A DNA stretch of 64,000 bases, taken from a virus. Taxonomy: Duplodnaviria; Caudoviricetes. Shown here piece by piece: positions 4,615 to 28,551 of the stretch (position 1 is the stretch's first letter; the number at the start of each line of letters is the position of its first letter). The DNA lies in the IMG/VR virus record IMGVR_UViG_3300028887_000100, positions 1-64,000 of that record, one strand, 5' to 3'. The notes below the pieces were generated by a model. That model worked only from the letters and a program-made list of their open reading frames with translations, was not told the DNA's origin and made no database searches. A program made the position numbers and the translations under genes.

Positions 4615-4628
4615 ATGGGTTCCTCCTT

Positions 4629-7339: not shown

Positions 7340-7353
7340 TATTTACTCCTTTC

Positions 7354-7397: not shown

Positions 7398-7419
7398 TTT
7401 GAATTGTTGCAGAAAATAA

Positions 7420-7569: not shown

Positions 7570-7584
7570 GTCTTTATCCTCCTA

Positions 7585-8697: not shown

Positions 8698-9001
8698 TAT
8701 CTTTGTCCTCCTTCTTAAGGTTTACTTCAGGATAATCTATCTCTGAATTGTGGTAGATCATTGTATCCTCATTTACAGCTTTCAGAAACCAATCAATTCT
8801 GGCATAAGGATTAGCATTAATTACAACATTACCAGGAAGTAACTGATAATAAGGTACTCCCATTTTGAATTCTTCAGGATTTTCTACTGCTCTAACAATA
8901 GTTCCTAAATCAGAATCATAAATCTCAGTTACTGTTAATAAAGGAAACTTTGCTTTGAACTGTGCTAATATCTTTTTAGCTTTAGGTTCGTTATTTTTCA
9001 T
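8690..9001 (-). CDS. Partner G, candidate immunity protein, paralog of 10494-10760
   Basis: Overlaps the stop of the papain-fold gene; FKxxxP...AVxxPxE...PYY shared with the paralog. Confidence 0.65.
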   Translation of the reverse strand: MKNNEPKAKKILAQFKAKFPLLTVTEIYDSDLGTIVRAVENPEEFKMGVPYYQLLPGNVVINANPYARIDWFLKAVNEDTMIYHNSEIDYPEVNLKKEDKDNE

Positions 9002-10487: not shown

Positions 10488-10493
10488 AACTAC

Positions 10494-10760
10494 TTATCCC
10501 TCCATAGATTTATCATGATAAATGAGGAAATTAGGTTTAGCTACTTTAGACACCAAGTTAGCATTATCTATGTAGCTAATTCCGTCAACTTTACCTTTGG
10601 AATAAACATAATAAGGATCCATCTCCATCTCCCATTCTTTAGGATCTTTAACAGCTAAGATTATTGATAAATCCCCTTTATTCCAAATTTTCATTATTGT
10701 CTTACCTGGACGAAACTTTTTGAATGCATCAAAGATCTGTCCAACTAAATCGTTGCCCAT
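10494..10760 (-). CDS. Partner E, candidate immunity protein
   Basis: Similar to 8690-9001; start MGND after AAAGGAG. Confidence 0.65.
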   Translation of the reverse strand: MGNDLVGQIFDAFKKFRPGKTIMKIWNKGDLSIILAVKDPKEWEMEMDPYYVYSKGKVDGISYIDNANLVSKVAKPNFLIYHDKSMEG

Positions 10761-10778
10761 ACTGTCTCCTTTCAAAGT

Positions 10779-11645
10779 TTATTTCTTCTTAAGTTCTTGT
10801 ATCTTTTCATTAACTCTATTCCAATCAGCTGCAGACATATTCTTCTGATCAGCTGAAGATATACCAAGTTCTTTCATTGCAGAGTTGAGTAAATCCCAGT
10901 TACCAATAATACCTCTGTCAAGATTCTTTTGTACAGCCTTTCTAGCTTCTTTAATTTCAGCTTTCTCTTGTTTTGTAGGCTTCTTATTTTCTTTCGTCGC
11001 GCCAATCTCTTTGTTGATCTTAGCAATATCGTCACCAGTTAAATTACCTTTCTTATCGAGAACTTCATTTATTTTTTTCTTAAATTCATCATTCTGTATA
11101 TTGGCAGTTTCTTTCTTCTCAACTGGTTTCTCAGCTTTAGGTTCTTCAGTCTTAGATGCAGGAGCAGTAGTAAGTCTACCTTTATCGAATGCCTGTGCAT
11201 CAAATTCCTGCATATACTTTCTTGGATTCTTTAAATACTTTGCGTATTCTTTATTTACATCATCATCATTATCAAGTGTTTCTGAATTCTGTATAGTCTC
11301 AACAAAATCTCTATCATACATATGTTTTTCAGTAGCATTACTTAGCTTTTCTTTTTGTTTATTCTCATCATAAACATGATTATCTTTCATACTATCAGGA
11401 TTATTAGCTTCTTTTTTATTTTGTGCATACTGGTATCTGTTATATGCACTTTTAATCTTAGTAGGAACTTTATCGCTTATGGAACCATCAGGATTAAGGT
11501 ATCTAGCTTTACCTTCTTCTGTAAGAGAACCATCAGGATTCTGGTATCTTCTTACACCCCATTTTTGTCCAAGAATTCCATGATGCATTAAGGAGTCTTT
11601 CTCATTAAACAATCTCAAATTGTCATAAAAGTCATTTCGTTCCAT
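10779..11645 (-). CDS. Modular array protein D, HHG leader and W-LLN...ADW C-terminal domain
   Basis: HHGILGQKWGVRRYQNPDG; GNWDLLNSAM...AADWNRVNEKIQELK. Confidence 0.85.
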   Translation of the reverse strand: MERNDFYDNLRLFNEKDSLMHHGILGQKWGVRRYQNPDGSLTEEGKARYLNPDGSISDKVPTKIKSAYNRYQYAQNKKEANNPDSMKDNHVYDENKQKEKLSNATEKHMYDRDFVETIQNSETLDNDDDVNKEYAKYLKNPRKYMQEFDAQAFDKGRLTTAPASKTEEPKAEKPVEKKETANIQNDEFKKKINEVLDKKGNLTGDDIAKINKEIGATKENKKPTKQEKAEIKEARKAVQKNLDRGIIGNWDLLNSAMKELGISSADQKNMSAADWNRVNEKIQELKKK

Positions 11646-11662
11646 GTTAATTAACTCCTTTC

Positions 11663-12172
11663 CTACTCATTTTGATTTTCTTCTTTTTCTTTTAATTGCT
11701 CTGCCTGATTCTCTTTGAGTAAATCGTAATACTTGTTAGCTTTCTTCTCACAATACTTTGAATCAATATGATTGTAACCAGCTTTAACTAAGTTTTTTGC
11801 AATCATTACTCCACCAACAACAGGAATAGTTAAAGTACCTAAGCCAAAAGCTGAAATAACTGGAATTACACCGCCTTCAGTTGCTGCATAAGCTAATCCT
11901 GTTAATCCCGCTTTAATACCAGCTTTTGTTAACTCCCAGTTTCTAGATCTCTTATCCTCTTCTGATCTATTGTTGTAGTAAGTCTCTTTTCTATTTACTT
12001 TGTGTTCATTGACTTTCTTAGAACCAAAATATCTTTGCTTACCTTCTTCATTGAAAGTACCATCAGGATTTTGCCAACGTCTTATGCCCCTCTTTTGTCC
12101 AAGGATTCCATAATGTTGAAGAGAATTACTTTTATACTCATTTAACTTATCATAGAATTCATTCCTGTTCAT
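11663..12172 (-). CDS. Modular array protein C, HYG leader and hydrophobic hairpin tail
   Basis: Start MNRNEF; HYGILGQKRGIRRWQNPDG; hydrophobic segment; ANKYYDLL matches protein H. Confidence 0.85.
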   Translation of the reverse strand: MNRNEFYDKLNEYKSNSLQHYGILGQKRGIRRWQNPDGTFNEEGKQRYFGSKKVNEHKVNRKETYYNNRSEEDKRSRNWELTKAGIKAGLTGLAYAATEGGVIPVISAFGLGTLTIPVVGGVMIAKNLVKAGYNHIDSKYCEKKANKYYDLLKENQAEQLKEKEENQNE

Positions 12173-12302
12173 CAGCTTCCACCTCAATTCCATGTTTCTT
12201 TAACTCTTCTCGAACAACTATAGCAGTAAAAGCTGAAACTGCTCTCATCTGTTCATCAGTTAAAGTCTTAAGAATATCTTCTATTGTTTTCTCTTTTTTC
12301 AT
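12159..12302 (-). CDS. 47-aa helical protein B (missing from ORF track)
   Basis: MKKEKTIEDILKTLTDEQMRAVSAFTAIVVREELKKHGIEVEADEQE; overlaps both neighbours. Confidence 0.75.
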   Translation of the reverse strand: MKKEKTIEDILKTLTDEQMRAVSAFTAIVVREELKKHGIEVEADEQE

Positions 12303-13228
12303 GCTATGATACCCTCCTTCTTTAAGTAATCATAATTAGGTGTTAAGTTATCTGTTCTTAAGAAGCAATGACCAGGTAAAGCCATATTAGCATGTTTAGC
12401 TATATCGTTCATACTATATTTCTTATTTGATTGTGCATCATATATAGTAGCTTTACCATCTTCAATTCTATAGAACATTGAATGCCCACCACCTTCAGCC
12501 CAGTATACCATAAAGTTACCATATGATCCTTCGGGCTGTTTGTTAAGCTGTTCAACAATACTATTGAAACGTCCCATTGTAGGATCTTTCTTCTCTTTAT
12601 ACCAATTCTTAAGATCCCTAGCATAGCAACCATCAGGACATATACCAGCTTTAACATCATATCCCCTTCTCTTTAAATCAAGAGCAGTTGTACAAAGCAT
12701 ACAGTTTTCAGTTCTACCTAATTTCTTTTCCGATTGTATTCCAGAAACAGATTCGGTAAATAAACCATAACCATATTCTCTGTTAATCATTTTGATGTCA
12801 TCTTCTACACTTGCATCAGGATTTGACTTAAGTTTTAAACCAGTCTTTGGATCTGTCTTTTCAAGTTGTCTATTAGCTTCCCAATTCTTAATATCTTTTG
12901 TGACTTTGGCATTGTGTATAGCATCTCCAATTTTAACACCAGCATAAGTTCCAGCAGATATACCGGCTAATGCTGCTAAAGCTGTTAATGATCCGATTTT
13001 CTCTTCAGGTTCTTTCTTAGTTTGAGTCTGATTTTTGGAATCCTCCTCTTTCTTAGGCTCTCTTGCAGGACCATATCCATATCTCTCTCGGCCAGCTTGG
13101 GTGTAAGAACCATCTTTTTCCTGGAAACGCCTTACACCCCACTTCTGACCGATAATACCATGGTGATACAATTCATTTTGCCTTTGTCTTGCTGCCTCTA
13201 ATTTGGTATAATATTCTGACTGTAGCAT
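12299..13228 (-). CDS. Modular array protein A, HHG leader and papain-fold (Tox-PL-like) domain
   Basis: HHGIIGQKWGVRRFQEKDG; ENCMLC...LKRRGYDV...GHSMF...YDAQ. Confidence 0.85.
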   Translation of the reverse strand: MLQSEYYTKLEAARQRQNELYHHGIIGQKWGVRRFQEKDGSYTQAGRERYGYGPAREPKKEEDSKNQTQTKKEPEEKIGSLTALAALAGISAGTYAGVKIGDAIHNAKVTKDIKNWEANRQLEKTDPKTGLKLKSNPDASVEDDIKMINREYGYGLFTESVSGIQSEKKLGRTENCMLCTTALDLKRRGYDVKAGICPDGCYARDLKNWYKEKKDPTMGRFNSIVEQLNKQPEGSYGNFMVYWAEGGGHSMFYRIEDGKATIYDAQSNKKYSMNDIAKHANMALPGHCFLRTDNLTPNYDYLKKEGIIA

Positions 13229-13253
13229 TGGTCCGCCTCCTCATTGAATATCT

Positions 13254-13523
13254 TTAGTTATTTAGTTTTGCTTCTAACTTGTCGACTCTTTTCTCCAAGT
13301 TTTTAATATCGCTTCTTATTTCTGGGATTTGTGTTCCGAAATTGTTGTGTTTGTCAACTGTTTCCTTTAGATTACTAATTCGTTCTTCGATTACTGCCTG
13401 ATTTTTGTCTAACTTTGCATCCATCTCTCGTGATTGTTTACCACTAATGATAACATTTGAGAATATGGTTGCAACTGCACCAATGATCGCTACGACAATT
13501 ACTGCAATTGAAGCTCCATCCAT
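13254..13523 (-). CDS. Holin-like / XhlA-like membrane plus coiled-coil protein
   Basis: One N-terminal TM helix then coiled coil; next to the endolysin. Confidence 0.65.
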   Translation of the reverse strand: MDGASIAVIVVAIIGAVATIFSNVIISGKQSREMDAKLDKNQAVIEERISNLKETVDKHNNFGTQIPEIRSDIKNLEKRVDKLEAKLNN

Positions 13524-13584
13524 GATATTGTACCTCCTTCCACATATTTTTGTTATTACCAAATTATTAACAGCATTAATATCT

Positions 13585-14445
13585 TTAAATAGGATTCCAG
13601 ATCATATCGAGTTTCTTAGCAGTATTTTTACCAACAATACCATCTGCAGTAAGTTTATTAGCTTTTTGGAATTTCTTTACAGCTGTATCAGTTTTAGTAC
13701 CAAAATCTCCGTCAATCTTTCCGCAAGCATAACCTTTCTTAGTTAATTGTTCTTGTAAAAGCTTGACATCAGTTCCTTTACTACCCATTTTGATTAATCT
13801 GTAAACAACCGGTTTAACATCAAGAGGTTCAGTATAATCTATAAAGTCAGCATAACCATAAGCAGACCAACCATGTTTATCTACTGATTCGTATACACAA
13901 TTCTCTGCAGAACTTTTCATATGTATACACATGCCATCACCTAAATAAATACCGGTATGCTTTATCGACTTTGATGATTTACCTTTAAACAGTAACACCA
14001 AATCATGAAGAGGAAGCGTAGTAATTGGGCCTTTTCTTTCAGATCTGTCATAGTATCCTTGAGCCGTAGTGTCATATCCTGAGAGTCCAGCATGTTCTCC
14101 TGAGCAGTCAGAACCAGGCTTTCCTTCTCCTTCCTTTAGTTTGTCATCATAGTATTTCCGATCATATGTAGAAGTATGGTAGTTACGATATGCTTTATCT
14201 ATAGTTTCTCTTGTTATGATCGTACAATAGTTAAAGCCCCAAACATATATCGTTCCATCTTCTTTGATTTGAACATAATACTTTCTTGCTTTCTTCTGCG
14301 GAGTTTTGTTGCCCATTTGGTTGTCTCCTTTCTTGTTATTTGTTTTTAGTAATTCACCGAGTCGTTCTAATCCTAATGTAAATATTATTAGCATCAAGAC
14401 TAGAATCAACCCGGCAAATGCTTGAAGGAATGGTAGATCTGTCAT
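13585..14445 (-). CDS. Endolysin: NlpC/P60 peptidase plus peptidoglycan-binding domain (second start at 14316)
   Basis: SDCSG...KHTGIYLGDGMCIH; DVKLLQEQL...IDGDFG...FQK...ADGIVG. Confidence 0.9.
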   Translation of the reverse strand: MTDLPFLQAFAGLILVLMLIIFTLGLERLGELLKTNNKKGDNQMGNKTPQKKARKYYVQIKEDGTIYVWGFNYCTIITRETIDKAYRNYHTSTYDRKYYDDKLKEGEGKPGSDCSGEHAGLSGYDTTAQGYYDRSERKGPITTLPLHDLVLLFKGKSSKSIKHTGIYLGDGMCIHMKSSAENCVYESVDKHGWSAYGYADFIDYTEPLDVKPVVYRLIKMGSKGTDVKLLQEQLTKKGYACGKIDGDFGTKTDTAVKKFQKANKLTADGIVGKNTAKKLDMIWNPI

Positions 14446-14708
14446 TACTGATTCATACCATTATTTGCTTTAAATTGTTCATCCGCAGCCTTCTTGTCTT
14501 TGTTGTAGGCAATAGTAGATACACCAATGAGTGCGCCTATCAAGCCTGCAGTTGCATTGATTATTATGACAATGGTATTAACAGTAGTGGGATCTACATT
14601 AAGAGCACCTAATACCAAAGATAAGAATGTAGCAAGAGCAGGAAGTGCAATAAGTGCAATCCACTTGAGCCAATTGTAAAGTGCATCAGGAATTTTAGGC
14701 ATAATCAT
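14445..14708 (-). CDS. Holin
   Basis: 87 aa with two TM helices and charged C-terminus, directly upstream of the lysin. Confidence 0.8.
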   Translation of the reverse strand: MIMPKIPDALYNWLKWIALIALPALATFLSLVLGALNVDPTTVNTIVIIINATAGLIGALIGVSTIAYNKDKKAADEQFKANNGMNQ

Positions 14709-15681
14709 TACCTCCTTTTACAATATCTTTGTGATTTGCTTTACCACTTTTGTTATAAATCTGGAAAGCCGTTTTAGCAGTACATTCTCGTATAAGATTG
14801 TCATGGATATGTATACCATTACAAATACCATCACCAGACTTAGCTTCAACTTTCTCTCCAGATGGTAAGTAGCTATAGTTCTTTGAATAGATTCTAGCTA
14901 CTCGGTTACAATAAAATACATTATTACAAACTTCAACATTCTCCATTGCAGTAAATGATAAACATGCCTGAACTAATTCAGAATTGAGTTTACAATTGAA
15001 GATGTTGTTATGTATCATAATGTTTTTGTGCTTGTGATTACCAGATAATTGACTATGTTCTCCTATACAAGCATAAGGATAATCTCTGTATTTTGACTTG
15101 TCAAATCCACAATTACAGATTCGTATATCTTTACAACAAGTACCGTCATAACATTTTGATTTCTTTGTTGAACCAGATAATACAAATCCGCTATATCCAG
15201 CATGGTCAATCTGTATCATTTCTTTGTAAGCTGACTCAATATCTTTAAGATTATAACCAAAGAAATAACAATGATTAACAAGCACACCTTCAGAAGAATT
15301 AATCTCTAAAGCATGACATAATGTATCTTTGAAAGTAACATCTTCTATAATAACATCATGAGAATGAAAGAATGTTAGGAGATTATCGTATGAATAACCT
15401 CCCATTCCTTCGATTGTCCCATTCTTTATAGTAATGTTACCAGCCCCAGTATACTTTGTAGTCTTTGTTGTTACCTTGTTGAGAAATACAGATTGTAAGT
15501 TTCCTTTTCTCTGTAAAGTAGAACCATTAAGATCTACAATAGTATCTGAAGGAATAATAAGCTGTTTTGTTATCTTGTAAGTTCCAGGAGTAAACTGTAC
15601 TATACCCTTATTATTTAGCTTTGATTGTATCTTAGACATAGAGTCTTTCGTTGTAATTACTGTAACTTGAGCTGGTGTCAT
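14695..15681 (-). CDS. Pectin-lyase-like right-handed beta-helix protein (possible depolymerase)
   Basis: VQFTPGTYKIT, NITIKNGTI, DVIIEDVTF, HALEIN-type coils. Confidence 0.8.
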   Translation of the reverse strand: MTPAQVTVITTKDSMSKIQSKLNNKGIVQFTPGTYKITKQLIIPSDTIVDLNGSTLQRKGNLQSVFLNKVTTKTTKYTGAGNITIKNGTIEGMGGYSYDNLLTFFHSHDVIIEDVTFKDTLCHALEINSSEGVLVNHCYFFGYNLKDIESAYKEMIQIDHAGYSGFVLSGSTKKSKCYDGTCCKDIRICNCGFDKSKYRDYPYACIGEHSQLSGNHKHKNIMIHNNIFNCKLNSELVQACLSFTAMENVEVCNNVFYCNRVARIYSKNYSYLPSGEKVEAKSGDGICNGIHIHDNLIRECTAKTAFQIYNKSGKANHKDIVKGGNDYA

Positions 15682-15703
15682 AAGGGTTCCTCCTTATTTT
15701 GAA

Positions 15704-17668
15704 TTATGTAACAGCATATACAATAAATACTGCATATGTATCTCCAGCTTTAAAAGTATATGAGCTGGATTTTGTTGTAAGTGTTATTAATCCATTCGTT
15801 GAATCAAAAGTAAATGCACCCGCATTAGCATTTGTGTTACCTGTTTCTGAAGTAGCATTATAATTAATAACAGTACCATAAATCTGTTCAAAATTTCCAT
15901 TTATGAAATTCATTTTACCCATAAGGAAAGTTTGTTCATACTTATCTCCTTGTAATGCTAGAGGAACAGCTAATACCATTTCAACAGTTTTAGTTTTATC
16001 ATATGAAACATCAAAAGATATAACATCAGAACTAATGTTTACTGTTGTCATTGTAATATTAGATGGCAATCCTCCACCTCCACCAGAAACATTGACAGAA
16101 ACATTAGCATAGTTTGTAATATCATATGTTCCATTATCAGTTATTGGATAAGTACCAGTAGGAACTATTCCAGGAACTGCAACATCTGCACTAGCATATT
16201 GTGAAACATCTATACCAGTTCCATTTTGCGTAATTTGTATCGTTCCAGAAACACTAGTAGGAACATTTACATAAGCACTTGCATAAGATTTCATATCATA
16301 TGTGCCATTTTCCGTAATCGTTTTAACTGCTAATGTGTCTGGTATAGGAACTCCTTCTTCATAAAACCAAGTTCTTATCTTAGTATTACCATCGTAACAC
16401 TCAATCTTACCAACATTATATACATCATGAATAACACAAGGTATATCAAAAGGTAAGTCACTCCATTTGCTAATTCCAGTCCAACCGTCATTAACACTAG
16501 GACAAGCTGGTATGTTAAATGTTTTAGTCGTATAACTTAAACCATCAATAGCATATTGTCTTACAGTAAGAGTTTTTGCAGAAGTATAGTCATTGCTACA
16601 GATAATAGTAATATCTTTACCATCGCAGAATATTGAAGAGACTAGCAATGTATCATATGTATCAAGTCCTTCATCTGTTAACTGATATACAGTATCACCA
16701 GGATAACAAGGCGTACTATAACCTGCACCAATTAAGTTACCTTCTAATAACAATGTCGAATTCTTTTTAATTGAAGTGCCATAAAGTCCACCACCATGGA
16801 ATATACAGTAATTCATATAAGAATCATTAGCAGCTGCCTGATAGAATACAGAATACGACCATCCACCTCCCTTAGGACTATATGGCATATTCATGCATTC
16901 AAATCTTACATTATATAAAATTGTACTATCAACATCACTACTAAACTGTAAACCGTCATAGTGTGCTTCTCCTGCAGTACTAACTTCAGGTTCAACATCC
17001 ATTACATATGAATTTATAATAGTATCATAGCTAAATAACTTAATAGCATCTTCAACATCAGTATCACCATATTTTGTTTTATAAAATGTTCTGTTACCTA
17101 TCAAACATCTTTCAACATAGGAATTAGATAATTTGAACATTTCCATAGAACAATTCATAAATGCAAACTGGATCATATCAGCTGATGCAAATGAATAAGC
17201 AGAGTTAACTTTCCTAAACAAACAATTTATAAAAACTATTTGTATTCCAGCTTTATAATATTGATCATTTTTACTGCATAAATTAACATTAGCTATTTCT
17301 AAACCAGTATATGCTGTGAAGTCAATATTTCTATAAACAATCGGCGCAGAAGTATCAACATTATATATTGTTTTCTTTGATGATGTGTTAAAATCAAGTT
17401 TTAAATTACCGCTAGAAGTATTCCATATTAATCCAGAAGTATCTGATAATTCATCAAATGGCTCTAAGTAACCATGCGATCCTACATTATATATATCTGG
17501 AATAATAAGTTTATCTCTGAAATCCAGATCAGAACTTCCACCAGTAGGAATAGAGGCAACCGCAGCCGCCATTTGTCCAACTTTATATGTATCTTGTGTA
17601 CCAAGTTTAGCACGAATAGCAGATGCGATTGCAGATATTGAGCTTTCTTCATATAGTTTATTACTCAT
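15704..17668 (-). CDS. Tail fibre / receptor-binding-like protein with beta-helix region
   Basis: N-terminal AIASAIRAKLG...QMAAAVASIP motif typical of fibres; repeated ITxNGTYD/YAxAxVNVP units. Confidence 0.7.
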   Translation of the reverse strand: MSNKLYEESSISAIASAIRAKLGTQDTYKVGQMAAAVASIPTGGSSDLDFRDKLIIPDIYNVGSHGYLEPFDELSDTSGLIWNTSSGNLKLDFNTSSKKTIYNVDTSAPIVYRNIDFTAYTGLEIANVNLCSKNDQYYKAGIQIVFINCLFRKVNSAYSFASADMIQFAFMNCSMEMFKLSNSYVERCLIGNRTFYKTKYGDTDVEDAIKLFSYDTIINSYVMDVEPEVSTAGEAHYDGLQFSSDVDSTILYNVRFECMNMPYSPKGGGWSYSVFYQAAANDSYMNYCIFHGGGLYGTSIKKNSTLLLEGNLIGAGYSTPCYPGDTVYQLTDEGLDTYDTLLVSSIFCDGKDITIICSNDYTSAKTLTVRQYAIDGLSYTTKTFNIPACPSVNDGWTGISKWSDLPFDIPCVIHDVYNVGKIECYDGNTKIRTWFYEEGVPIPDTLAVKTITENGTYDMKSYASAYVNVPTSVSGTIQITQNGTGIDVSQYASADVAVPGIVPTGTYPITDNGTYDITNYANVSVNVSGGGGGLPSNITMTTVNISSDVISFDVSYDKTKTVEMVLAVPLALQGDKYEQTFLMGKMNFINGNFEQIYGTVINYNATSETGNTNANAGAFTFDSTNGLITLTTKSSSYTFKAGDTYAVFIVYAVT

Positions 17669-17691
17669 ATCATACCTCCATTTTGAATTAT

Positions 17692-17820
17692 TTATTTAAG
17701 TTTTGAATAATGTTTTGAGATGTTAGTTAAAATATTAATAACAGGTCTTACAACATTATACATGAAAAACCTTACTTTCATCATATTCTTCTCAAAATCA
17801 CTTTTCTCTTTTTTCTTCAT
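17692..17820 (-). CDS. 42-aa basic peptide (missing from ORF track)
   Basis: AGGAGG RBS; MKKKEKSDFEKNMMKVRFF... Confidence 0.45.
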   Translation of the reverse strand: MKKKEKSDFEKNMMKVRFFMYNVVRPVINILTNISKHYSKLK

Positions 17821-17833
17821 AGTATTTTCCTCC

Positions 17834-18868
17834 TTATAAAACTATTCTCATTTCAGGTTTGATGTCTTCTCTAATACCATTTTCATCAAAGTATTTTTCA
17901 AAGATTTCATCTGAACTTAAGTCATTGTAAACATCTACCATTTCAACTGAACTCCAGCCAAAGAATTCTCGTATAACATGATATGGTAAATTTAGTTTTA
18001 TAAGTTTTGTATCAACGTAATGTCTAACAGCATGCCAATAGAAATTTTTATTAAGTAACTTTGAGAATACTTCTTTCCACCAATCCATAGTATCTATCGA
18101 AATAGGTTCATTTGGATTAGCTTGTTTTGGAAATAGCCATTCGCTAACTATTCCTTTTTCTTCTCTTTCTTTTAACCATAATCGTAAATATGGATCAAAA
18201 GTATGTTTAAGAGTATAACAATAAATCATTTTGCCTTTAGAAGTTCTACCTTTTGTTTTAACCTTTTCTGGCGTTTTATAAATAGAACCATATAAGACAT
18301 AATCATCATTAAAATACCATGATTTAAATCTAGGTATCTCAGCTTTTCTTCTTCCAGAATTCATAGCTAAACTCAAAGCACAAGCTTGTTTATATGCTTT
18401 ATGTTCAACTAAAGTATTAAGTAGCCATTCAAGTTCTTCTTCTTTTAATACTGTTTTGTCTCTAACAGGAGTTATTACTGGAGATTCAATTTTTCGTATA
18501 ACAGAATGGTAACCAGCATATTCTTCTTCCTCATCCAGAATATTTTCAATAAAGTTTGAGAAAGATGAAATAGTTGCTTTAACTCTTCTTAAACGATTAG
18601 GACTCCACTCCCAAAAACTTAAAGCCCTTAATTGAAACTTCATAAACTCTCGTTTAGTAATTTCAATAAAGAACTTATTGTTATTTTCTACAACATTCCA
18701 ACAGAAGAAAATGTTTAAATCATTTCTGTACTGGTATATTGTAGTTGGTGATTTGTCGACAGAAATTAAATACTCTTCAAAAGAATACATAAGTTTTCTG
18801 TTCTTTTCATTGATTTGCTTTAAGAGCTCCTCGTTACAGATGTTGTTGTGTTTTGTTTCTCGTGCCAT
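17834..18868 (-). CDS. Tyrosine recombinase (integrase/Xer family)
   Basis: Catalytic set present: GRRKAEI (R), KTKG (K), HAVRH (HxxR), GWSS (W), DVY (Y). Confidence 0.9.
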   Translation of the reverse strand: MARETKHNNICNEELLKQINEKNRKLMYSFEEYLISVDKSPTTIYQYRNDLNIFFCWNVVENNNKFFIEITKREFMKFQLRALSFWEWSPNRLRRVKATISSFSNFIENILDEEEEYAGYHSVIRKIESPVITPVRDKTVLKEEELEWLLNTLVEHKAYKQACALSLAMNSGRRKAEIPRFKSWYFNDDYVLYGSIYKTPEKVKTKGRTSKGKMIYCYTLKHTFDPYLRLWLKEREEKGIVSEWLFPKQANPNEPISIDTMDWWKEVFSKLLNKNFYWHAVRHYVDTKLIKLNLPYHVIREFFGWSSVEMVDVYNDLSSDEIFEKYFDENGIREDIKPEMRIVL

Positions 18869-18894
18869 TTTTTATTCGTCTCCTTTTAAAAATA

Positions 18895-18930
18895 TTATAG
18901 GAGACCATATGTTATATACAGTCTCCTATT
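18895..18930 (-). terminator. Hairpin upstream of the recombinase
   Basis: ATAGGAGAC...GTCTCCTAT followed by AATATTTTT. Confidence 0.5.
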
Positions 18931-18969
18931 TTGAAACGAATAAATTTTCGCGACACTAAAATTTTGGTT

Positions 18970-19071
18970 TTATTGGGTTTCATCTTCTTTCCATAACCGC
19001 TTTAATCCTATCATCAAAGCAATTAAAGTGATTGCAACGCCTACTAAAAATCCTATAAGAAAATTAATCAT
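18970..19071 (-). CDS. 33-aa single-TM peptide
   Basis: MINFLIGFLVGVAITLIALMIGLKRLWKEDETQ. Confidence 0.5.
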   Translation of the reverse strand: MINFLIGFLVGVAITLIALMIGLKRLWKEDETQ

Positions 19072-19090
19072 CTTCCATCCTAAAATAGTT

Positions 19091-19231
19091 TTATTGGGTT
19101 ACATCAGTTTCATCAAAAGGTGATGGATATTTTTCTTTCAATTTTTTATCTACTATCGGCAAAACAATAAAATGGAAACCCAATCGCATCACCAACATAA
19201 TTCCTAAACTAATTAATATATAAATATTCAT
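19091..19231 (-). CDS. 46-aa single-TM peptide
   Basis: MNIYILISLGIMLVMRLGFHFIVLPIVDKK...DVTQ; GAGAGG RBS. Confidence 0.55.
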   Translation of the reverse strand: MNIYILISLGIMLVMRLGFHFIVLPIVDKKLKEKYPSPFDETDVTQ

Positions 19232-19265
19232 ATCTTTCCTCTCCTAAAATGGTTATTTTATGGGG

Positions 19266-21044
19266 TTACACATTAATCAAGCCTTTTATGTAATCTGCAA
19301 AACGATTATAAGTTTCGGCTAATTGTGCTACATCCGCCAAACTTGCCAACTCGCCGTTGTGGTAATCAAACTGAATGTTTGTTCCGTTAGTAGACACATA
19401 AACGTAATCCTTTAAAAGGCTGATTTCCCGTGGTGTTAATTGAATGGTAAAGGGTGTGGCTAAAGGATATCCTACTTTCTGTCCTACAAGAGCAGTTTGT
19501 AAACTTGTTGCATCTGTGTATCTGCTATCAAAAACAATAAGCATTTGAGCATTGTTATAAAATCTTATAGAAGCATCTGGAATTTGCGGTGCTGGAACAG
19601 GTGCAGTTTGGTAACATGAACAAACTAAATCAGATGATGTATAAACCGCAGGGTACATATCTGTAATATTTTCACTTCTAAAATATGTATAACTTCCATC
19701 AACAATTTTTGTCCAAGCAAGATTCCCCATATCAACGGCGTTATGTGTAACCGTCAGCACACCCGTCCTAACATCCAAAGTTGCCCCATACACCGTCCGC
19801 CCCAAGGATTCCGATAAATCTATGATTTTAATGGGTGGTTCGTAAGTAGATTGTGTACTTCCATATTCAATTTGTGAATTTGCACAATTAGTAACTGTTC
19901 TAAACGCTATCCACCCTGTTATCGGAGCAATAATTGCTACACCGACGGTATATGTATATCGTGAAGAATCATATGCTTGACTTGTTGCCGTGGGCTTATT
20001 GGTAAACCAAGCCATTGTCGCATTTCCATCTGACGATATTACATATGATGCACCTTTTACAACAGGAGCATATACCACATCATATCCTGTTTCACTTGCG
20101 AAAGTTCCGTTTGCATTGATAGCATAACCCGATAATTTACCGTCAACAAGATTCTTCCCACACGATAAAACCTCAATTTTATCGTAGCCAGATATAGGAC
20201 AGATGTTTTCGTATGGAGCAAAACTTGAATCGCTTTCCGTGGAAAGGCGTATCATGGGCTTGAATAACTTATTTGTTGTCTGCCCTGCGAAACAAGTTAT
20301 AGCAATATTATTACTTGCATATGTTGACGGATATGTATATGATGCACCGTTTCCAATATCACTTACACTACCACCACCGTTCACCCATAAACCTAAAACA
20401 TAAGAGTTTGAAGAACCACCACTCGGACAACCACTTAATATTATAGACTTACCTGCTACAGTATTAAAATACGCTTCGACATTTTGTGTGATATAAAAAG
20501 TTGCTTGTGATGTAAAATTACCATTTGCTAAAATTCCTGTCACATTTCCTGCCGAATCAGTTTGTATGGTAAATGTTCCCCCATTAATTGTGTAAACATT
20601 ACCATTCCATGTTCCTGCTATATTTTGACCTTTAATAGCCGAAATCTCCAATGGTGCAAGGTTCTTTCCCCCACCTGCGGGATAAGGCTTTGATTGCCCG
20701 TGTAAGTCCTGTATAGGCTCAAAGGTGATAACGGGATTTACCGCTAATTGCGAGGATTTTAAACCGCTTATGGATAACGGATTGCCCGATACCGATTCCA
20801 ATGAAACGTCTATTTTATCCTGAATGTCGCTAATATCCTCTTCTATTTCGTCAATAGCATCCTGCACGTTGGTCGCAGACAATCCGCTTGATGTGTTGTC
20901 ATAATCAACGTCTTCGGCATCAGGTTTTACAACATCCACAATTCTTCCCAATTCTTCAGCTAATACATCTGCTATATTCCGTGGATTAGTCTCTGTGGTG
21001 TTTAAACTTTCATCCAATGCCATAGGTTTTGTAACTGTTGCCAT
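19266..21044 (-). CDS. Tail fibre / receptor-binding protein
   Basis: YDNTSSGLSATNVQDAIDEI, PYPAGGGKNL and YQLATP-type motifs; position after the baseplate genes. Confidence 0.75.
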   Translation of the reverse strand: MATVTKPMALDESLNTTETNPRNIADVLAEELGRIVDVVKPDAEDVDYDNTSSGLSATNVQDAIDEIEEDISDIQDKIDVSLESVSGNPLSISGLKSSQLAVNPVITFEPIQDLHGQSKPYPAGGGKNLAPLEISAIKGQNIAGTWNGNVYTINGGTFTIQTDSAGNVTGILANGNFTSQATFYITQNVEAYFNTVAGKSIILSGCPSGGSSNSYVLGLWVNGGGSVSDIGNGASYTYPSTYASNNIAITCFAGQTTNKLFKPMIRLSTESDSSFAPYENICPISGYDKIEVLSCGKNLVDGKLSGYAINANGTFASETGYDVVYAPVVKGASYVISSDGNATMAWFTNKPTATSQAYDSSRYTYTVGVAIIAPITGWIAFRTVTNCANSQIEYGSTQSTYEPPIKIIDLSESLGRTVYGATLDVRTGVLTVTHNAVDMGNLAWTKIVDGSYTYFRSENITDMYPAVYTSSDLVCSCYQTAPVPAPQIPDASIRFYNNAQMLIVFDSRYTDATSLQTALVGQKVGYPLATPFTIQLTPREISLLKDYVYVSTNGTNIQFDYHNGELASLADVAQLAETYNRFADYIKGLINV

Positions 21045-23326: not shown

Positions 23327-25402
23327 TTATGCACTCGGTAATCCTGCCGAAAGCCAAGTATATATTAGACCCATTTCAGCATCAGTAGGACTTTCCTGAT
23401 TGTAGCTATATACATCTGTACCTGTATAGTAAACAAATGAAGGTTTAGCAACCTCGTTAGTGTCATCTTTAAGGAAAGCAACGTGGATTTTATCAACGTC
23501 AGCTACGCTACTGCCAACAGGACTTGTAAAACTGTAAATCTCTGTATCGCCTGTATAAAGCTTAAATACGATACTGCTATTGCTAATCTGAACTGTAAGG
23601 CTATTGCTGTCACCACTCCAAAGAATTTCTATTTCAGAACCATCCCATGTACCTGCACCACCCATGTGTACGTCTGTGATAAGTGGTGCTAAGATTTCCT
23701 TACTTGTATTTACAGATATTACTTTTGTAAATCTGTAATCGCCCTTATCATCATAAGGAAAAATACCATAATAATACTGTTTATTGATTTCGATATTACT
23801 ATCAACAAAAGGTGTATTAGCATAAGCGTCTCTTGTTGTGCTATTAACAAGAATAGTTCCGTCCCAAGGATACCAAGGTTCAGAACCTTCCTTACGCACA
23901 ACAACTGTGCCAGCCCAAGTAGCTGGTGCAGGACGAGAGTTGCTTATATCTTCCGGGTCAGTCCACATAATACCAACTTCACCGCTATCAGCATCATAGC
24001 TAACTGATATATGAGAAGGCTCTTGTAACATACGAAAACCTATATTTCGTATAGCTTTAACAAACTTTGTTTTCCAATCATCTTTAAGAACACTTATACC
24101 ATCAGCACCGCTACCACTTGTTGCTACATCACTATCGCCTTGTTGCCATCTATCATTAGTTATCTTATAACGTGGTTGCTTTCTATCTCCCTTTGCATAA
24201 TACACATCTGTAAACTCTTGTAGACCCGTAAATTCACGTTTTAGTATATAAGAGTATAAATTCTTCACGATAGGAGTCTCATCGTCAACTCCGTCTGTTT
24301 CCTCATCATAGGTGACGTTCTCAAGATTTATCCTATCTCCAACTTCATAGCATAAGTTTCCTTCGCACTCACTCTCAATGGGATAATACCACATATGAGT
24401 TATCGTATTTCTCAGATTGAGTGCGGCTTGCTTTATTGCTTCAAGTCTACCTTCGATTCCGCTATTGTTTGTGAATACAAAGCTGTTTACAATATTATAA
24501 ACGCTTGGATGAGTATAAGCTGAATTGCCCTCATAAGCAATTCTTATATTGTTTCTGTCCCAAATAGCAACATAGCCAATACCCCAAACATGATAGTCCT
24601 CATAGATGACAGGCTTAAAGCTGTCCTCTTCCGTAATAACTCTTTTAGGGTCTTGGTCGAATGTTTCAAGGCTAATATATCTAAATACGCCAGTTCTATC
24701 AATATGTCCAAATACTCCGTTTGCTTCAAGAAGTCCTTCCATTACAAAGCCAAAAGTGATAACATCGCTTTCAATACTGTTTTCTACTTCAAAGTCATCA
24801 TTTATAAGTTCAACGGTCTCTTGAGATAATGTATATTCATATCCAGCACCTTTTATACCAATTGATGTTGTCTGACTCTTGGATGTTGTCAGCCACTCAA
24901 ATATTGCATTTCTCCAATCCTCTATGGAGACAGTGGAATTTGACGCATACAGCTTGTTATACAACTTAGTGATATCATAATCATATAAGTCCTGTAAAAC
25001 GTCAAAACAAGTCAAATGGCGTGTTTCCCTGTCATCTGAATATTCATCCATCTTGACAACATACAAACCCACTTGGAAAAGTGTACTGCTATCCTCATCA
25101 AAATAGATATATACTTTTATCTCATCATCTTTTAAGGATGTAATGCTTATATCATTAAAGATATCAATTTCAAACTTTGACGGATGCATTGAACCAAACT
25201 TCAGATTCTGGCTTTCGTTAAGTGCTTCAGCAAGGGCTATTGAATCTCCGTCCATATTTGCTTCAGTCAATGTAAAATCAGCATCAGTTATTGTAGGTGC
25301 TGAATCTTCAACAGGAGTGACAGTAGCGGAAGAATTAACTATGATTAGATGTACTGTTTCATGTTCGGAAAACAGGTCTATGTAATCGTATGTATCTATC
25401 AT
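23327..25402 (-). CDS. Baseplate hub / Tal-like protein with C-terminal extension
   Basis: Follows Dit; FN3-like GTVVVRKEG...DGTILV segment. Confidence 0.7.
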   Translation of the reverse strand: MIDTYDYIDLFSEHETVHLIIVNSSATVTPVEDSAPTITDADFTLTEANMDGDSIALAEALNESQNLKFGSMHPSKFEIDIFNDISITSLKDDEIKVYIYFDEDSSTLFQVGLYVVKMDEYSDDRETRHLTCFDVLQDLYDYDITKLYNKLYASNSTVSIEDWRNAIFEWLTTSKSQTTSIGIKGAGYEYTLSQETVELINDDFEVENSIESDVITFGFVMEGLLEANGVFGHIDRTGVFRYISLETFDQDPKRVITEEDSFKPVIYEDYHVWGIGYVAIWDRNNIRIAYEGNSAYTHPSVYNIVNSFVFTNNSGIEGRLEAIKQAALNLRNTITHMWYYPIESECEGNLCYEVGDRINLENVTYDEETDGVDDETPIVKNLYSYILKREFTGLQEFTDVYYAKGDRKQPRYKITNDRWQQGDSDVATSGSGADGISVLKDDWKTKFVKAIRNIGFRMLQEPSHISVSYDADSGEVGIMWTDPEDISNSRPAPATWAGTVVVRKEGSEPWYPWDGTILVNSTTRDAYANTPFVDSNIEINKQYYYGIFPYDDKGDYRFTKVISVNTSKEILAPLITDVHMGGAGTWDGSEIEILWSGDSNSLTVQISNSSIVFKLYTGDTEIYSFTSPVGSSVADVDKIHVAFLKDDTNEVAKPSFVYYTGTDVYSYNQESPTDAEMGLIYTWLSAGLPSA

Positions 25403-25414
25403 ACAAATTCCTCC

Positions 25415-25846
25415 TTAGTATCCTATAAGCTCCATCTCTGTAGCACTATATATGACTTTATTGCCCTCAGTCCTTAAAATCGTAAATTCAATATCAGGAA
25501 TATAGAAATAGTCTGTAACATAGCCATTAATCTCAGGTATCCAAATGCTTGCTTTTACTTTTTTCTGACGCTTCTTGACATAATGTAGCTGTATCAATTC
25601 CAAGATACCAAAAAGCTGAGTATTGTCCATCTGTCTGAAAGTAAATTTACAATGACCGACTTTATGCGGATATGTTGTTCTTCTAAGTTTACCAGTGCCA
25701 GCTCGCTTTGCATCCTCATCCAATACTGAGTATGTGGCTTTATAGCTTTCATACACAATAGCTCCCATTGGAATCACGTAATCCCAATCTGCTGTTTGAC
25801 TTCCAGATATTGCCTTTATTTTAATCAAGTATCCTTCATAAGCCAA
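25415..25846 (-). CDS. Distal tail (Dit-like) protein
   Basis: Directly after the tape measure; size and sequence style. Confidence 0.65.
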   Translation of the reverse strand: MAYEGYLIKIKAISGSQTADWDYVIPMGAIVYESYKATYSVLDEDAKRAGTGKLRRTTYPHKVGHCKFTFRQMDNTQLFGILELIQLHYVKKRQKKVKASIWIPEINGYVTDYFYIPDIEFTILRTEGNKVIYSATEMELIGY

Positions 25847-25878
25847 TTATAACACACCTTCTTTCTATTTACAACTAC

Positions 25879-28551
25879 TTAAACAAGACTCTCATTGGGA
25901 AACTGCATTAAGTAGACTTTGGCTTCTTTCTGCCATGCCTTGAACAATCCTTTAGGGTCTCCCTTAACATCAAATGTAACTTTGACTCCCATCTTTGACA
26001 CTACATTTGCAACTGCCTGTTCTATTGTTGACAAAGGAGCTTCTACGTTTGTACCGTTCGTCTGGTCTCCAACCATCGCCAAGAATGGTTTATTAGGAGG
26101 AAGTACCATACCACTTGCTCCAAAAGGAATACGACCAAACTTCTTTTTTATATTTTCAAGCTCTTCTGGTGTAAGATTTTTCCATTTCTCTCCGACATCT
26201 CCAGCAACAAGCTGATGACGCTTTGCATCCTGTACTGCCTTATTATACTCTTCCTCAGTCTCGCCATATCTTGCAAGATGCACGTTATCAAGCTCTATAC
26301 CAATAAGACTACTTACAGCATTTGCGGCATCGATTGCGGCGTTAATTAACCACTCTATTGCTGATATAATTGCATTGAATGCTCCAAAGAATATCTTCTT
26401 GAGTCCTTCCATAGCTTGTTCCATATCGCCTGAGAACACGCCAGTTATGAAATCTACTATACCACTAAGTATCTGCTTGAAATCCTTAAATAGATTTCCA
26501 AGTGAGCCTATAGTGTTCTTTATAAGCCTTGCTACAGAACGTATAGCACTCTGTAATAGTATTGTAAGGAATCCAAACAGATATTCAAGTATTGGCATAA
26601 CGACTGTATCTAAGAAGTCAAACACACCTTGTAATGTATCTGAAAAATCACCATCTAAAAATTCCTGTATGTCCTCAATGATGTCTAAAAGTGCTTCTCC
26701 AAGAGTCTCAGCAATCGGCTTAATTACATTGTCAATCAACCACTCAAGCTTAGGTTCTACCCACTCTAAAAACTTAGTGATTTTGTCAAACACACTTCCC
26801 GCTAAATCACCTAAAACAGGAAGCAATTTTTCAACTAACCACTTGCCAAGGGGAAGTAAAATGTCTTTCCAAATCTTGCGTAAAAGCTTGAATATCGGCT
26901 GTAAAAATTCATGCACCTTTTCAAGTAGTCCTTTAACTGTCGTTAATAGTGGAGCTAAATCAAGGTCAACTGCCCACTCTGCTAAATCTTCTGTAATATC
27001 TGCAACAAAATTATAGATATCTGCAAATATACCGAGCAAAGCTTCAGCAATTCCATCACCGATTCCAGCTGTATTCCAAGCTTTGTCAAAAGCAGTTATA
27101 AGTCCGTTTACAAACTTTAAGATGCCTTCAAGCCTTCTCTGCATTGCTCCGAGTATCTTTTCGCCAGCACCATTTTCCCATGCTTTCTTGAATGATGCAC
27201 CAATATCCTTAATAAGCTTCAGCGCATTTTCAAGAGTCTTAAAAAGCTGATTATCCGCAAGACTTACTGTATCAAAGTATTTCTTAGCATAATGTACAGT
27301 ATCTTTAGTGAGTCCTACGCCGTTCTTCTGCTGAGATATTACATTCAGTTTATCAAATCCGGCAAGTGAACCGCTCGCTTCTTCCACGCTCTTTGCATAG
27401 TCTACATAATCTACAGATGCTTCATAGATGTAATTCTGTCCCGCAAGCATAGCAAAAAGCTGTGCCATCTTGTTCATCAATTCAGTAACCTTCTGAATCG
27501 CTAATGTAATTGCAGGCGCAAAAGCCTGTATAAATGGCTGTACAAGTGTTCCAACTGAAGCTTTCAAGCCCTTAAATGCTGTAACGATATCCGATACAGC
27601 TTTGTTCATCTCAGGTATCTCTTGTACCATTACTTTGATTGCTTCTTTTGCTACACTTCGCAAGCGTCTGAATAAAAAATACAAACTCCTGATACCAAGC
27701 GTGTATTTAAGCAAAGTCATAAGACCACGCTTCATTGACTTGCCTAAATCATCTGTGTGTCTGCTACTGCTTCTTGAATGCTTGGATAATAAACTAAGAG
27801 GATTAATCATGCGTAAAAGAGTTCTGGTTAATCCTGCCATAGCTGACGCTGTTGCTTTTGAAGCTTTTCCAAGACTTGCCAATGACAGCTTGTGTGATTC
27901 TTCCTCTTTAGTTGCTTCTTGTGCAAGCTGTATTTCTTCACCAAGCGTTAAATCAAGCTTTTCCTCATCATCGATGACCTGCTCGGCTCCCATATGTGTC
28001 TCTGCATACTTCTCTTTAAGTATATTGGCAGCCTGTACTGCTTGCATTAATGATGCGGCTTTATTTTTATACTCTTGAGTAGTTGTACCGCTTACAGTAT
28101 CCTGACCAAGCTCTTCCATCTTTGCTATATTGCCAGATACCTTCTCATATCGTTTCTGAAGTCTTTCCAGTTCTTCACCAAGCTCTTTATACTCAGAACC
28201 GTATTTCTCGCCTTTATTTAAAAGCTTTTTGCGCTCGGCTTCAACTTCTTCCATGCGCTTTTTTGTCTGTTCAAGTAGTTTGTTTAAAGATTCATAACGC
28301 TCCGTAGGTATTCTTGTATCCGCAAGCTTCTGAGCTTCACCAGCAAGCTTTTCCATGCGGTTAGCGACATTAGTAAGATTCTTGATATAAGACAAAGTTT
28401 TAGCATCAAGCTTACTCATATCGATATTGGATAAAATACGTTTAAGCTCGTTGCCTAACTGTTTTGCATCTTTTAAAGCCGTGTCAAAGTTAAGACCTAC
28501 TGGTATTTTTACACTTCCATCGGGCATAGTTATTGACCTCCCGTATTCCAA
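25879..28551 (-). CDS. Tape measure protein
   Basis: 890 aa helical protein with W/F periodic repeats; LAGFDKLNV and MVGDQ..VEAPL motifs. Confidence 0.9.
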   Translation of the reverse strand: MEYGRSITMPDGSVKIPVGLNFDTALKDAKQLGNELKRILSNIDMSKLDAKTLSYIKNLTNVANRMEKLAGEAQKLADTRIPTERYESLNKLLEQTKKRMEEVEAERKKLLNKGEKYGSEYKELGEELERLQKRYEKVSGNIAKMEELGQDTVSGTTTQEYKNKAASLMQAVQAANILKEKYAETHMGAEQVIDDEEKLDLTLGEEIQLAQEATKEEESHKLSLASLGKASKATASAMAGLTRTLLRMINPLSLLSKHSRSSSRHTDDLGKSMKRGLMTLLKYTLGIRSLYFLFRRLRSVAKEAIKVMVQEIPEMNKAVSDIVTAFKGLKASVGTLVQPFIQAFAPAITLAIQKVTELMNKMAQLFAMLAGQNYIYEASVDYVDYAKSVEEASGSLAGFDKLNVISQQKNGVGLTKDTVHYAKKYFDTVSLADNQLFKTLENALKLIKDIGASFKKAWENGAGEKILGAMQRRLEGILKFVNGLITAFDKAWNTAGIGDGIAEALLGIFADIYNFVADITEDLAEWAVDLDLAPLLTTVKGLLEKVHEFLQPIFKLLRKIWKDILLPLGKWLVEKLLPVLGDLAGSVFDKITKFLEWVEPKLEWLIDNVIKPIAETLGEALLDIIEDIQEFLDGDFSDTLQGVFDFLDTVVMPILEYLFGFLTILLQSAIRSVARLIKNTIGSLGNLFKDFKQILSGIVDFITGVFSGDMEQAMEGLKKIFFGAFNAIISAIEWLINAAIDAANAVSSLIGIELDNVHLARYGETEEEYNKAVQDAKRHQLVAGDVGEKWKNLTPEELENIKKKFGRIPFGASGMVLPPNKPFLAMVGDQTNGTNVEAPLSTIEQAVANVVSKMGVKVTFDVKGDPKGLFKAWQKEAKVYLMQFPNESLV

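Follow-up and report, generated by a model that had tools for sequence, protein, structure and literature searches.

A rumen-type virus record with an abrupt loss of restriction sites is probably a chimeric assembly of two unrelated phages

The first 64,000 nucleotides (henceforth the window) of the 81,871-bp IMG/VR virus record IMGVR_UViG_3300028887_000100 change abruptly in composition near 19 kb. We consider it likely (probability about 0.8) that the 81.9-kb record is a chimeric assembly path and that this boundary separates two rumen-type viruses, rather than being a junction inside one genome: a 62.7-kb siphovirus-type phage (phage A) and, to its left, an arm belonging to an unrelated phage of ~128 kb (phage B). 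No real molecule would then carry the join. The features on which the argument draws are listed below in window coordinates.

1–19087, minus strand: arm, phage B fragment; GC 33.5%; GATC, CTAG and GCWGC at normal frequency
13585–14445, minus strand: endolysin of the phage B lysis pair, NlpC/P60 + PG_binding_1
14445–14708, minus strand: Dp1-family holin of the phage B lysis pair
14695–15681, minus strand: tail-spike-like protein of phage B, 328 aa; phrog_2234, 1.5e-37
17834–18868, minus strand: tyrosine recombinase/integrase of phage B; PF00589, 7e-14; phrog_1 integrase, 2e-27
18970–19071, minus strand: 33-aa membrane mini-gene, B-specific; diverged homologue (~75% nt) of a phage A 39-aa gene at record 81608–81727
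19088–19214, no strand: segment S, 127 nt; identical to record 81745–81871
19091–19231, minus strand: 46-aa membrane mini-gene, in both phage A and phage B
19266–21044, minus strand: distal tail fibre (P0001); 592 aa from ATG, 604 aa from an upstream TTG
20208–64000, minus strand: window part of phage A, siphovirus-type, without GATC or CTAG and with one GCWGC; runs on to record 81744

Restriction sites and composition change at the boundary

The window contains 66 GATC sites between 1 and 18193 and none from 18194 to 64000, nor does any occur up to the end of the record. The original prediction had described GATC as frequent on the left, which it is, and as apparently missing from some 45 kb on the right, which understates an absence that holds to the record end. 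Under a second-order Markov model, 20208–81744 shows 0 GATC against 292 expected (z = -22.1; the mononucleotide expectation is 204, with P(0) ~ 2e-89), and the arm has a normal count (66 observed, 78 expected, z = -1.6). CTAG is found 35 times in the arm, and 0 times in phage A against 73 expected (z = -9.8), and GCWGC 22 times in the arm versus once beyond, with ~114 expected in phage A. The corresponding counts for the arm versus the sequence beyond the boundary are 7 and 0 for CTGCAG, 1 and 0 for GAGCTC, and 15 and 4 for CCWGG. The integrase ORF holds the final GATC (18193) and the final CTAG (18330) as well as the sole GAGCTC (18824).

Other properties shift at the same place. GC content goes from 33.5% in the arm to 38–39% beyond, and promoter type switches as well: all seven matches to TTGAC-N17-19-TATAAT fall in phage A and none in the arm, while all three matches to TCGY-N15-TATAAT fall in the arm and none in phage A. 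Both changes had been anticipated from the letters alone. Tetranucleotide profiles, compared with GATC and CTAG excluded, correlate at only r = 0.32–0.34 between the arm and phage A segments, as against 0.70–0.75 among phage A segments. Site counts, tetranucleotides and promoters all differ, and the original proposal of two lineages, each with its own restriction history, meeting at this boundary is correct. When the two halves were compared separately with isolated phages by megablast, neither gave a match.

The loss of sites in phage A belongs to its lineage. Among 80 loci of the phage A family, observed over expected counts span 0/132 to 119/108 for GATC, 0/26 to 64/74 for CTAG and 0/25 to 55/56 for GCWGC, and the loci differ in the combination of these sites that is depleted, which makes avoidance a lineage-specific trait and not a general compositional bias. 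Multi-site restriction avoidance in phage A is real biology, extreme and of a known kind, and host Type II restriction would have selected against GATC, CTAG, GCWGC, CTGCAG and GAGCTC; phage B, judged by its arm, appears not to have been purged in this way. The virulent 140-kb Staphylococcus phage K has lost all its GATC sites, against Sau3A (PMC6532042). Phage A resembles it in having lost GATC across the whole genome despite hundreds expected, with depletion of other short Type II-like sites; unlike phage K, it nearly eliminates at least three sites together (GATC, CTAG and GCWGC), in addition to CTGCAG and GAGCTC.

Each partner assembles on its own

The last 127 nt of the record (81745–81871) are identical to window 19088–19214, so that 19088–81871 closes into a 62,657-bp cycle, phage A. 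Immediately to the left of the identity, 19048–19087 is only ~75% like 81707–81744, the similarity decaying gradually over 40 nt. Because the contig-end 127 nt recur internally and the flank differs, the record describes a rho-shaped path with a 62,657-bp cycle. The cycle carries genes for Pol, DnaB, primase, an initiator, an SNF2 helicase, TerL, portal, minor capsid/capsid, tail, a holin-like ORF and endolysin, and is self-sufficient, with its own replication, structural and lysis genes. A relative of 64,159 bp (G001), 96–99% identical to phage A and collinear with it, runs straight from tail to lysis genes with the arm absent, and genomes of the family measure 61–65 kb overall. An integrase search of the record recovered a single copy, the arm's own, and phage A is without one; with this search as positive control, five further family genomes (61.0–62.8 kb, three with terminal repeats) likewise proved to have neither the arm nor its integrase. 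A host search for relatives through the shared fibre domain in genome contigs returned none.

The arm, in turn, is contiguous elsewhere with other DNA. An independent ENA assembly has its genes on a contig of 128,131 bp. One end of that contig, 360 nt from the integrase, corresponds to window 19228 (19088 + 140); the other holds a second fibre (P0002) and, after it, 32 codons belonging to the 46-aa gene. By arithmetic on the contig ends and gene tables, the two ends overlap by ~93 nt within the same segment, so that phage B closes on itself. A Logan contig extends ~6 kb past window position 1 with gene orientation unchanged, and position 1 is therefore no natural end. The integrase is carried too by a 20–50-kb contig. 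Phage B also encodes DUF7211-leader proteins and a 1138-aa ORF that, judged by size alone, could be a tape measure; the nearest isolates to its tail-spike-like protein by tblastn are SPO1-like Bacillus myoviruses of 130–150 kb (~30% identity). In IMG/VR, the arm's 654-aa protein had no relatives and the integrase just four, all distant, and a protein atlas query with the phage B endolysin returned only 'Viruses' and no host.

The join lies in a segment common to both phages

Both partners thus assemble alone, each without the other (A as a 62,657-bp cycle, B as a 128,131-bp contig), and the join lies in sequence identical between them, of which 127 nt recur at the end of the record. In the same ENA sample, the lysis and early genes of phage A are on a separate 33.6-kb contig that starts at the same 141-mer, and the ENA contigs end at the equivalents of 19228 (19088 + 140) and 81885. 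A JGI contig (L011) begins exactly at the 127-mer (81871), and a Logan k=31 contig ends at 19117 (19088 + 29). Since these ends coincide, three assemblers branch at the same base, 19088. An exact search of IMG/VR with the arm-side junction 31-mer found nothing, and two JGI metagenome scans, one with a 32-mer from segment S and one with an arm-side 32-mer, gave no matches; as L011 contains S, the scanned set is probably missing near-identical records.

Segment S is most likely the graph node at which the path from the arm runs into the cycle; from the positions of the ENA contig ends, it would extend to ~19276. The segment common to both phages would run from 19088 to at most ~20207, with at least 127–189 identical nt and possibly 1.1 kb, and the switch between B and A is predicted to fall somewhere within these limits. 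The juxtaposition most probably arose as a de Bruijn graph path through sequence common to two genomes. The walk would start inside phage B, enter the stretch common to A and B (the 46-aa mini-gene and the 3' region of the fibre gene), exit on the phage A side, circle the complete 62,657-bp genome once and halt on re-entering the shared node. An exact repeat of 189 nt is short enough for paired reads to bridge, and the assembler's choice may have had some pair support. In viral metagenome assemblies, chimeric contigs arise from regions common to co-existing viruses (PMC5610896). The present record resembles such chimeras in that an identical stretch joins distinct genomes, a k-mer at the contig end recurs internally and other assemblers break there; it differs in that, instead of strain variants, two unrelated phages are involved (one of 62.7 kb and siphovirus type, the other of ~128 kb), which have only the fibre and mini-gene segment in common.

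The shared fibre and mini-gene segment

A triple repeat had been noted next to the boundary, and we recovered it at 18967, 19088 and 19250, each copy marking the conserved junction of stop codon and RBS between tandem mini-genes that encode 33–46-aa membrane proteins. The adjoining fibre gene appears to be shared in part. Residues 294–592 of the window fibre (19269–20165) are identical to the C-terminus of the phage B fibre, and over the C-terminal 313 aa the two proteins agree at 309 positions (99%), the identity beginning at a conserved linker motif, NI..ISGYDK.EV.SCGKNL, with unrelated N-termini before it. Other assemblies place residues 1–279 in continuity with the tail genes of phage A. 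The full window fibre was found in this record alone, and judging from where the ENA contigs end the two sequences would diverge from ~19277 onwards, so that this fibre too may be of chimeric origin. No near-identical pieces turned up when incomplete fibre products were sought in order to locate the switch. The 46-aa protein, the 592-aa fibre and the 286-aa endolysin were each looked up as exact sequences, and none gave a match.

Fibre C-termini are exchanged horizontally between unrelated phages, giving mosaic tail fibres and receptor-binding proteins. P0001 and P0002, with unrelated N-terminal anchors and near-identical C-termini, would fit this pattern. They depart from it in that ownership by phage A is putative, P0001 being known from this possibly chimeric record, and in that the shared block includes the downstream 46-aa membrane mini-gene. 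The shared module has a phage A-like composition, with 0 sites against 7.5 expected, and the phage B copy looks imported whether or not the window fibre is a chimera. We infer that phage B probably acquired the segment from a site-avoiding phage, by homologous recombination at the conserved fibre linker and the mini-gene array. The sharing of the tail-fibre and mini-gene segment points to a real earlier exchange. The origins first proposed for the boundary included assembly error, which we favour, and module swap; the third, integration, is unsupported.

Other explanations for the join

A and B might co-infect one host and recombine within the shared segment, so that joined molecules exist as replication intermediates or as a co-integrate of ~190 kb. 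The two phages do co-occur in at least three datasets and possess the identical stretch described above, phage-phage recombination in tail-fibre genes is well established, and the assembler picked the joined path, perhaps with read-pair support. We nevertheless regard such a hybrid as unlikely, since A and B each close on themselves, the join is absent from all other assemblies found, a co-integrate would be three times the packaging size of A, whose family genomes reach 61–65 kb, and the left end of the record is an arbitrary point within B.

On another reading, cassettes are truly exchanged at the mini-gene array beside the phage B recombinase, a hot spot akin to an integron or shufflon, and the record would be a real A–B recombination product. 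The conserved 18–28-nt repeats at mini-gene boundaries (18967, 19088, 19250 and the phage A copies) would then be recombination sites. We hold this to be improbable; if true, the boundary repeats would let co-infecting phages that are otherwise unrelated swap the receptor-binding ends of their fibres as well as small membrane genes.

The original prediction had placed the join at the recombinase, by integration. This is not supported: the integrase lies wholly on the left, in phage B, and the join falls 220–1340 nt to its right, in the common segment. No direct repeats flank either block at both ends, and self-BLAST links no repeat at the arm's left end to the cycle. The arm could still be a mobile element, or the end of a temperate one, that its tyrosine integrase placed site-specifically in A beside the mini-gene repeats, which would act as an att-like or integron-like site. 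The integrase (17834–18868) indeed adjoins the junction, 220 nt from the start of identity with A at 19088; an 18-nt repeat stands at 18967 and 19088, the identity beginning at the first base of the 19088 copy, and the element side carries a homologous mini-gene, as when insertions replace a gene's 3' end. Such an insertion is very improbable all the same: the arm's other end has no second junction or flanking repeat, the arm belongs to ~128 kb with its own fibre, 1138-aa ORF and lysis genes (far too large a cargo for a 62-kb headful), the gradual decay of similarity left of 19088 (~75% over 40 nt) fits a homologous and not a site-specific crossover, and relatives of A are without an insertion at this place.

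The record could also be a single genuine phage of ~82 kb whose parts differ in site content, for example through a recently captured 19-kb accessory module awaiting purge. CheckV rates the record 100% complete and every gene is on one strand. We give this little credence: through the 127 nt that the contig end has in common with the interior, A closes with the arm left out, 66 GATC sites would undo the benefit of purging ~290, relatives reach only 61–65 kb and in other assemblies the arm continues into ~110 kb of other DNA.

Least credible of all is a prophage–host junction, with the prophage on the right and a bacterial chromosome or other resident element on the left, for although such junctions classically show an integrase where composition changes, and resident host DNA, protected by methylation, has no need to avoid GATC, the left side has genes for phage functions (tail spike, Dp1 holin, endolysin, fibre), is without cellular genes or tRNA and is part of a closed ~128-kb entity, and the right-hand phage is without an integrase and has 61–63-kb relatives with terminal repeats. 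The likeness to prophage attL/attR junctions consists in a PF00589 integrase next to an abrupt shift in composition and to short direct repeats; unlike there, no att repeats surround either block, the integrase side belongs to a phage-like genome of ~128 kb that is itself closed, and the other side is complete without an integrase. Integration at a tRNA was dropped as a candidate, the whole window containing zero tRNA genes.

Implications

With a chimeric assembly path as the preferred reading, a record rated 100% complete appears to consist of a complete 62.7-kb phage plus 19 kb of another phage. Treating it as one genome would mislead about its size and about its lifestyle, since phage A does not own the integrase, and likewise about host defence history and the 'effector families on each side'. 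Such chimeras can be detected cheaply and generally by combining a break in oligonucleotide composition with a match between the contig end and the contig interior. For the phages themselves, the phenomena are of known kinds but cleanly displayed: a site-free receptor-binding segment sits in an unrelated ~128-kb phage that co-occurs with phage A, and the all-or-none loss of GATC, CTAG and GCWGC, in varied combinations across the family, could serve to match uncultured phages to hosts by restriction repertoire.

Two phage-like gene sets meet at a compositional boundary

The original prediction, that GATC is common on the left of the window and absent from the right, proved stronger than first stated: site counts gave 66 GATC in 1-18193 and none afterwards through the window end and the end of the record, an IMG/VR virus contig of 81,871 bp whose first 64,000 bases form the window. 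Under a second-order Markov model, 292 GATC are expected in 20208-81744 of the record and none is observed (z = -22), whereas the left 19 kb holds a normal 66 against 78 expected. Other sites change likewise from left to right: CTAG from 35 to 0 (73 expected), GCWGC from 22 to 1 (~114 expected), CTGCAG from 7 to 0, GAGCTC from 1 to 0 and CCWGG from 15 to 4. At the same place GC content rises from 33.5% to 38-39%, and tetranucleotide z-score vectors (GATC and CTAG removed) correlate at r = 0.32-0.34 between the left block and three right-hand segments, versus 0.70-0.75 among the right-hand segments themselves. The predicted changes in AT content and promoter type hold as well, with seven TTGAC-N17-19-TATAAT matches on the right side only and three TCGY-N15-TATAAT matches on the left side only.

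Features of the record (window coordinates up to 64000; long ORFs are all on the minus strand)
4629-13228, minus: at least five left-side proteins (886, 370, 288, 176 and 309 aa) with the same ~35-aa start
17562, 18193, 18330, 18824: final left-hand GCWGC, GATC, CTAG and GAGCTC, respectively
17834-18868: tyrosine integrase, left side
18897-18929: hairpin
19266-21044, minus: distal tail fibre (P0001)
25879-28551: tape-measure-sized ORF
39225-40739, minus: 504-aa protein with a family-2 glycosyltransferase domain (PF00535, 4e-23)
51778-51882, 59527-59650, 60295-60398 (window); 68048-68152, 68575-68694, 69238-69361, 76294-76375 (record): repeat family

Besides the integrase, left-side genes include those for a 654-aa protein without any match in the databases, a tail-spike-like protein, a Dp1-family holin, an NlpC/P60 and PG_binding_1 endolysin, and several proteins that share an N-terminal leader (DUF7211, phrog_32444; motif ..HYGILGQKWG.RRWQN.DG.F.EEGK.RYF). 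The parts behind this leader are mutually unrelated, and one is a papain-fold glutamine-deamidase toxin domain (PF15644). The right side carries a large terminase, an SPP1-type portal, minor capsid protein 2, the tape-measure-sized ORF and distal tail proteins within the window, and past its end a DNA polymerase, a DnaB-like helicase, a primase, a replication initiator, an SNF2 helicase, a holin-like ORF and a PG_binding_1 endolysin. The glycosyltransferase gene has the large terminase on one side and the portal region on the other, an unusual location for such an enzyme. The seven right-side repeats (~70-125 nt), each with TTGAC-N17-19-TATAAT on the minus strand, probably represent one early promoter/leader element present in several copies.

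The right side closes into a cycle entered by an arm, probably part of a second phage

Window 19088-19214 recurs without a mismatch as the final 127 nt of the record (81745-81871), and identity drops to ~75% in the 40 nt leftward (19048-19087 vs 81707-81744). When the end of a contig matches its interior exactly over 127 nt, this is the trace of a k = 127 de Bruijn path re-entering a used node. Thus, 19088-81871 closes into a 62,657-bp cycle (phage A) and 1-19087 is an entering arm. Around the cycle the genes run from the tail fibre to the 46-aa and then the 39-aa mini-gene, the holin-like ORF, the endolysin and the early genes; in the arm, what comes after this 46-aa gene is a diverged 33-aa mini-gene, then the integrase.

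We compared other assemblies through gene tables (exact-protein look-ups) and contig-end arithmetic. The arm integrase and its neighbours lie on a 128,131-bp ENA contig that ends 360 nt from the integrase, at the equivalent of window 19228 (19088 + 140), as fits a MEGAHIT k = 141 unitig stopping at a branch at 19088. A Logan contig (k = 31) ends at 19117 (19088 + 29). In the same ENA sample, the phage A endolysin is on a separate 33.6-kb contig starting at the equivalent of 81885 (81745 + 140), and a JGI contig starts exactly at the 81871 equivalent and continues into the 39-aa gene, holin and endolysin of phage A. These matching ends indicate that three assemblers branch at the same base.

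A protein search with P0001 found a 558-aa fibre, P0002, on the same 128,131-bp contig at the opposite end from the integrase, followed by a cut ORF of 32 codons that is the start of the 46-aa gene. By the same arithmetic, the contig ends overlap by ~93 nt inside the segment common to both phages, and the contig therefore represents a closed genome of ~128 kb (phage B), ordered B fibre, 46-aa gene, 33-aa gene, integrase, 654-aa protein, tail spike, holin, endolysin and onward. The B tail-spike-like protein is closest (~30%) to those of SPO1-like Bacillus myoviruses of 130-150 kb, and the A portal (~40%) to those of Clostridioides siphoviruses. The two are unrelated phages, probably both of Bacillota.

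We conclude, with a probability of about 0.8, that the record combines part of phage B, the segment common to both and all of phage A in one chimeric contig, so that the assembly error named among the original options is the best supported. Chimeric contigs from highly similar regions of co-existing viruses are documented, more often with metaSPAdes than with MEGAHIT (PMC5610896). The GATC boundary would then be the border of two viruses rather than a feature inside one genome.

A real A-B recombinant or co-integrate is unlikely: A and B are found together in three datasets or more, but the arm-to-A join is absent from the contigs of all three other assemblies (ENA, Logan and JGI). Insertion of an integrative element into A is far less probable. 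An integrase does lie beside the join, and the original prediction had named integration among the possible causes of a join there; this is not supported: similarity decays gradually leftward from 19088, as at a homologous crossover, flanking att repeats are lacking, and the integrase would belong to B and not be the agent of the join. Moreover, integrase relatives are missing from all five further family genomes searched (61.0-62.8 kb, three with direct terminal repeats), the same search on the record returning exactly one copy, in the arm. Slightly less credible still is a single 82-kb genome. The arm entity goes on for at least 6 kb left of position 1 with small same-strand ORFs, which means that the record does not begin at a natural end; searching with the portal gave 80 related IMG/VR loci, and many of these sit on 60-65-kb contigs. 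One relative, G001 (64,159 bp), shares 96-99% identity with nearly all of the cycle, and its tail genes run straight into the holin and lysis region. A prophage-host junction is the least plausible, as both sides are phage-like and neither holds cellular genes or tRNAs.

G001 differs from the cycle only in its distal tail cassette: window 22766-19088 plus record 81871-81595, with 384-, 229-, 116- and 604-aa genes and mini-genes, is replaced by ~3.2 kb of unrelated sequence (G001 24991-28203), which looks like a host-range cassette swap.

Phages A and B share a mini-gene segment and probably part of a fibre

A and B have a mini-gene segment in common that is identical in both, and probably also a fibre domain for receptor binding. 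From P0001 residue 294 (window 20165) to the stop codon, P0001 and P0002 match exactly; they differ at four of residues 280-293, and are unrelated upstream of 280 except for a short NPVITFEPIQ linker motif. Window 19088-20207 has no GATC, CTAG or GCWGC, where 7.5 are expected at the arm's combined 6.7 per kb (P ~ 5e-4). This block is thus of A-type composition though phage B carries it, and was most likely imported by B from a site-avoiding phage. To its left, the B-specific 18194-19087 (integrase 5' half, hairpin and 33-aa gene) has one marker site against 6.0 expected at the arm rate (P ~0.02); imported site-poor DNA may reach left of 19088, or sites may be scarce there by chance.

P0001 was found in this record only, and the ENA contig ends place the real divergence of B from the other path at ~19277. 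The switch from B to A may therefore fall near 20165-20207, within the fibre gene and not in the 189-nt segment from 19088, and the true fibre C-terminus of phage A may differ from the record's version; no partial fibre products that would place the switch are on record. Contigs of the A tail module (ENA, Logan) also break in the fibre N-terminal part, at ~20583 and ~20799, which points to more mosaicism here, or to variation among strains. The two large ENA contigs of A meet at ~48.3 kb, near the G001 ends (47.1-48.5 kb), a region in which ~0.9 kb of G001 is unrelated to the record. All three positions are additional points of variation, or possibly genome termini.

Restriction-site avoidance varies within the phage A family

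Phage A has rid itself of at least three short sites (0 GATC, 0 CTAG and 1 GCWGC in 20208-81744). The surviving GCWGC, at window 28028 inside the tape-measure-sized ORF, has an equivalent that is the sole site, or one of two, in G001 and the near-identical relatives L012 and L013. Among the portal-found relatives, each of GATC, CTAG and GCWGC is either essentially absent or normal, in combinations that vary by lineage (observed/expected): GATC 0/132 and GCWGC 55/56 in L026, GATC 0/52 and CTAG 64/74 in L039, and GATC 40/46 and CTAG 0/11 in L053. These patterns look like fingerprints of differing host restriction repertoires. Complete GATC loss is an anti-restriction strategy of staphylococcal phage K against Sau3A (PMC6532042), and phage A is likewise GATC-free. 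Of the two co-occurring phages that share the segment, only A avoids the sites; B must cope with them in another way, methylation and injected anti-restriction proteins being candidates. The loss of sites in the A family and a segment common to two unrelated phages remain real and mildly interesting.
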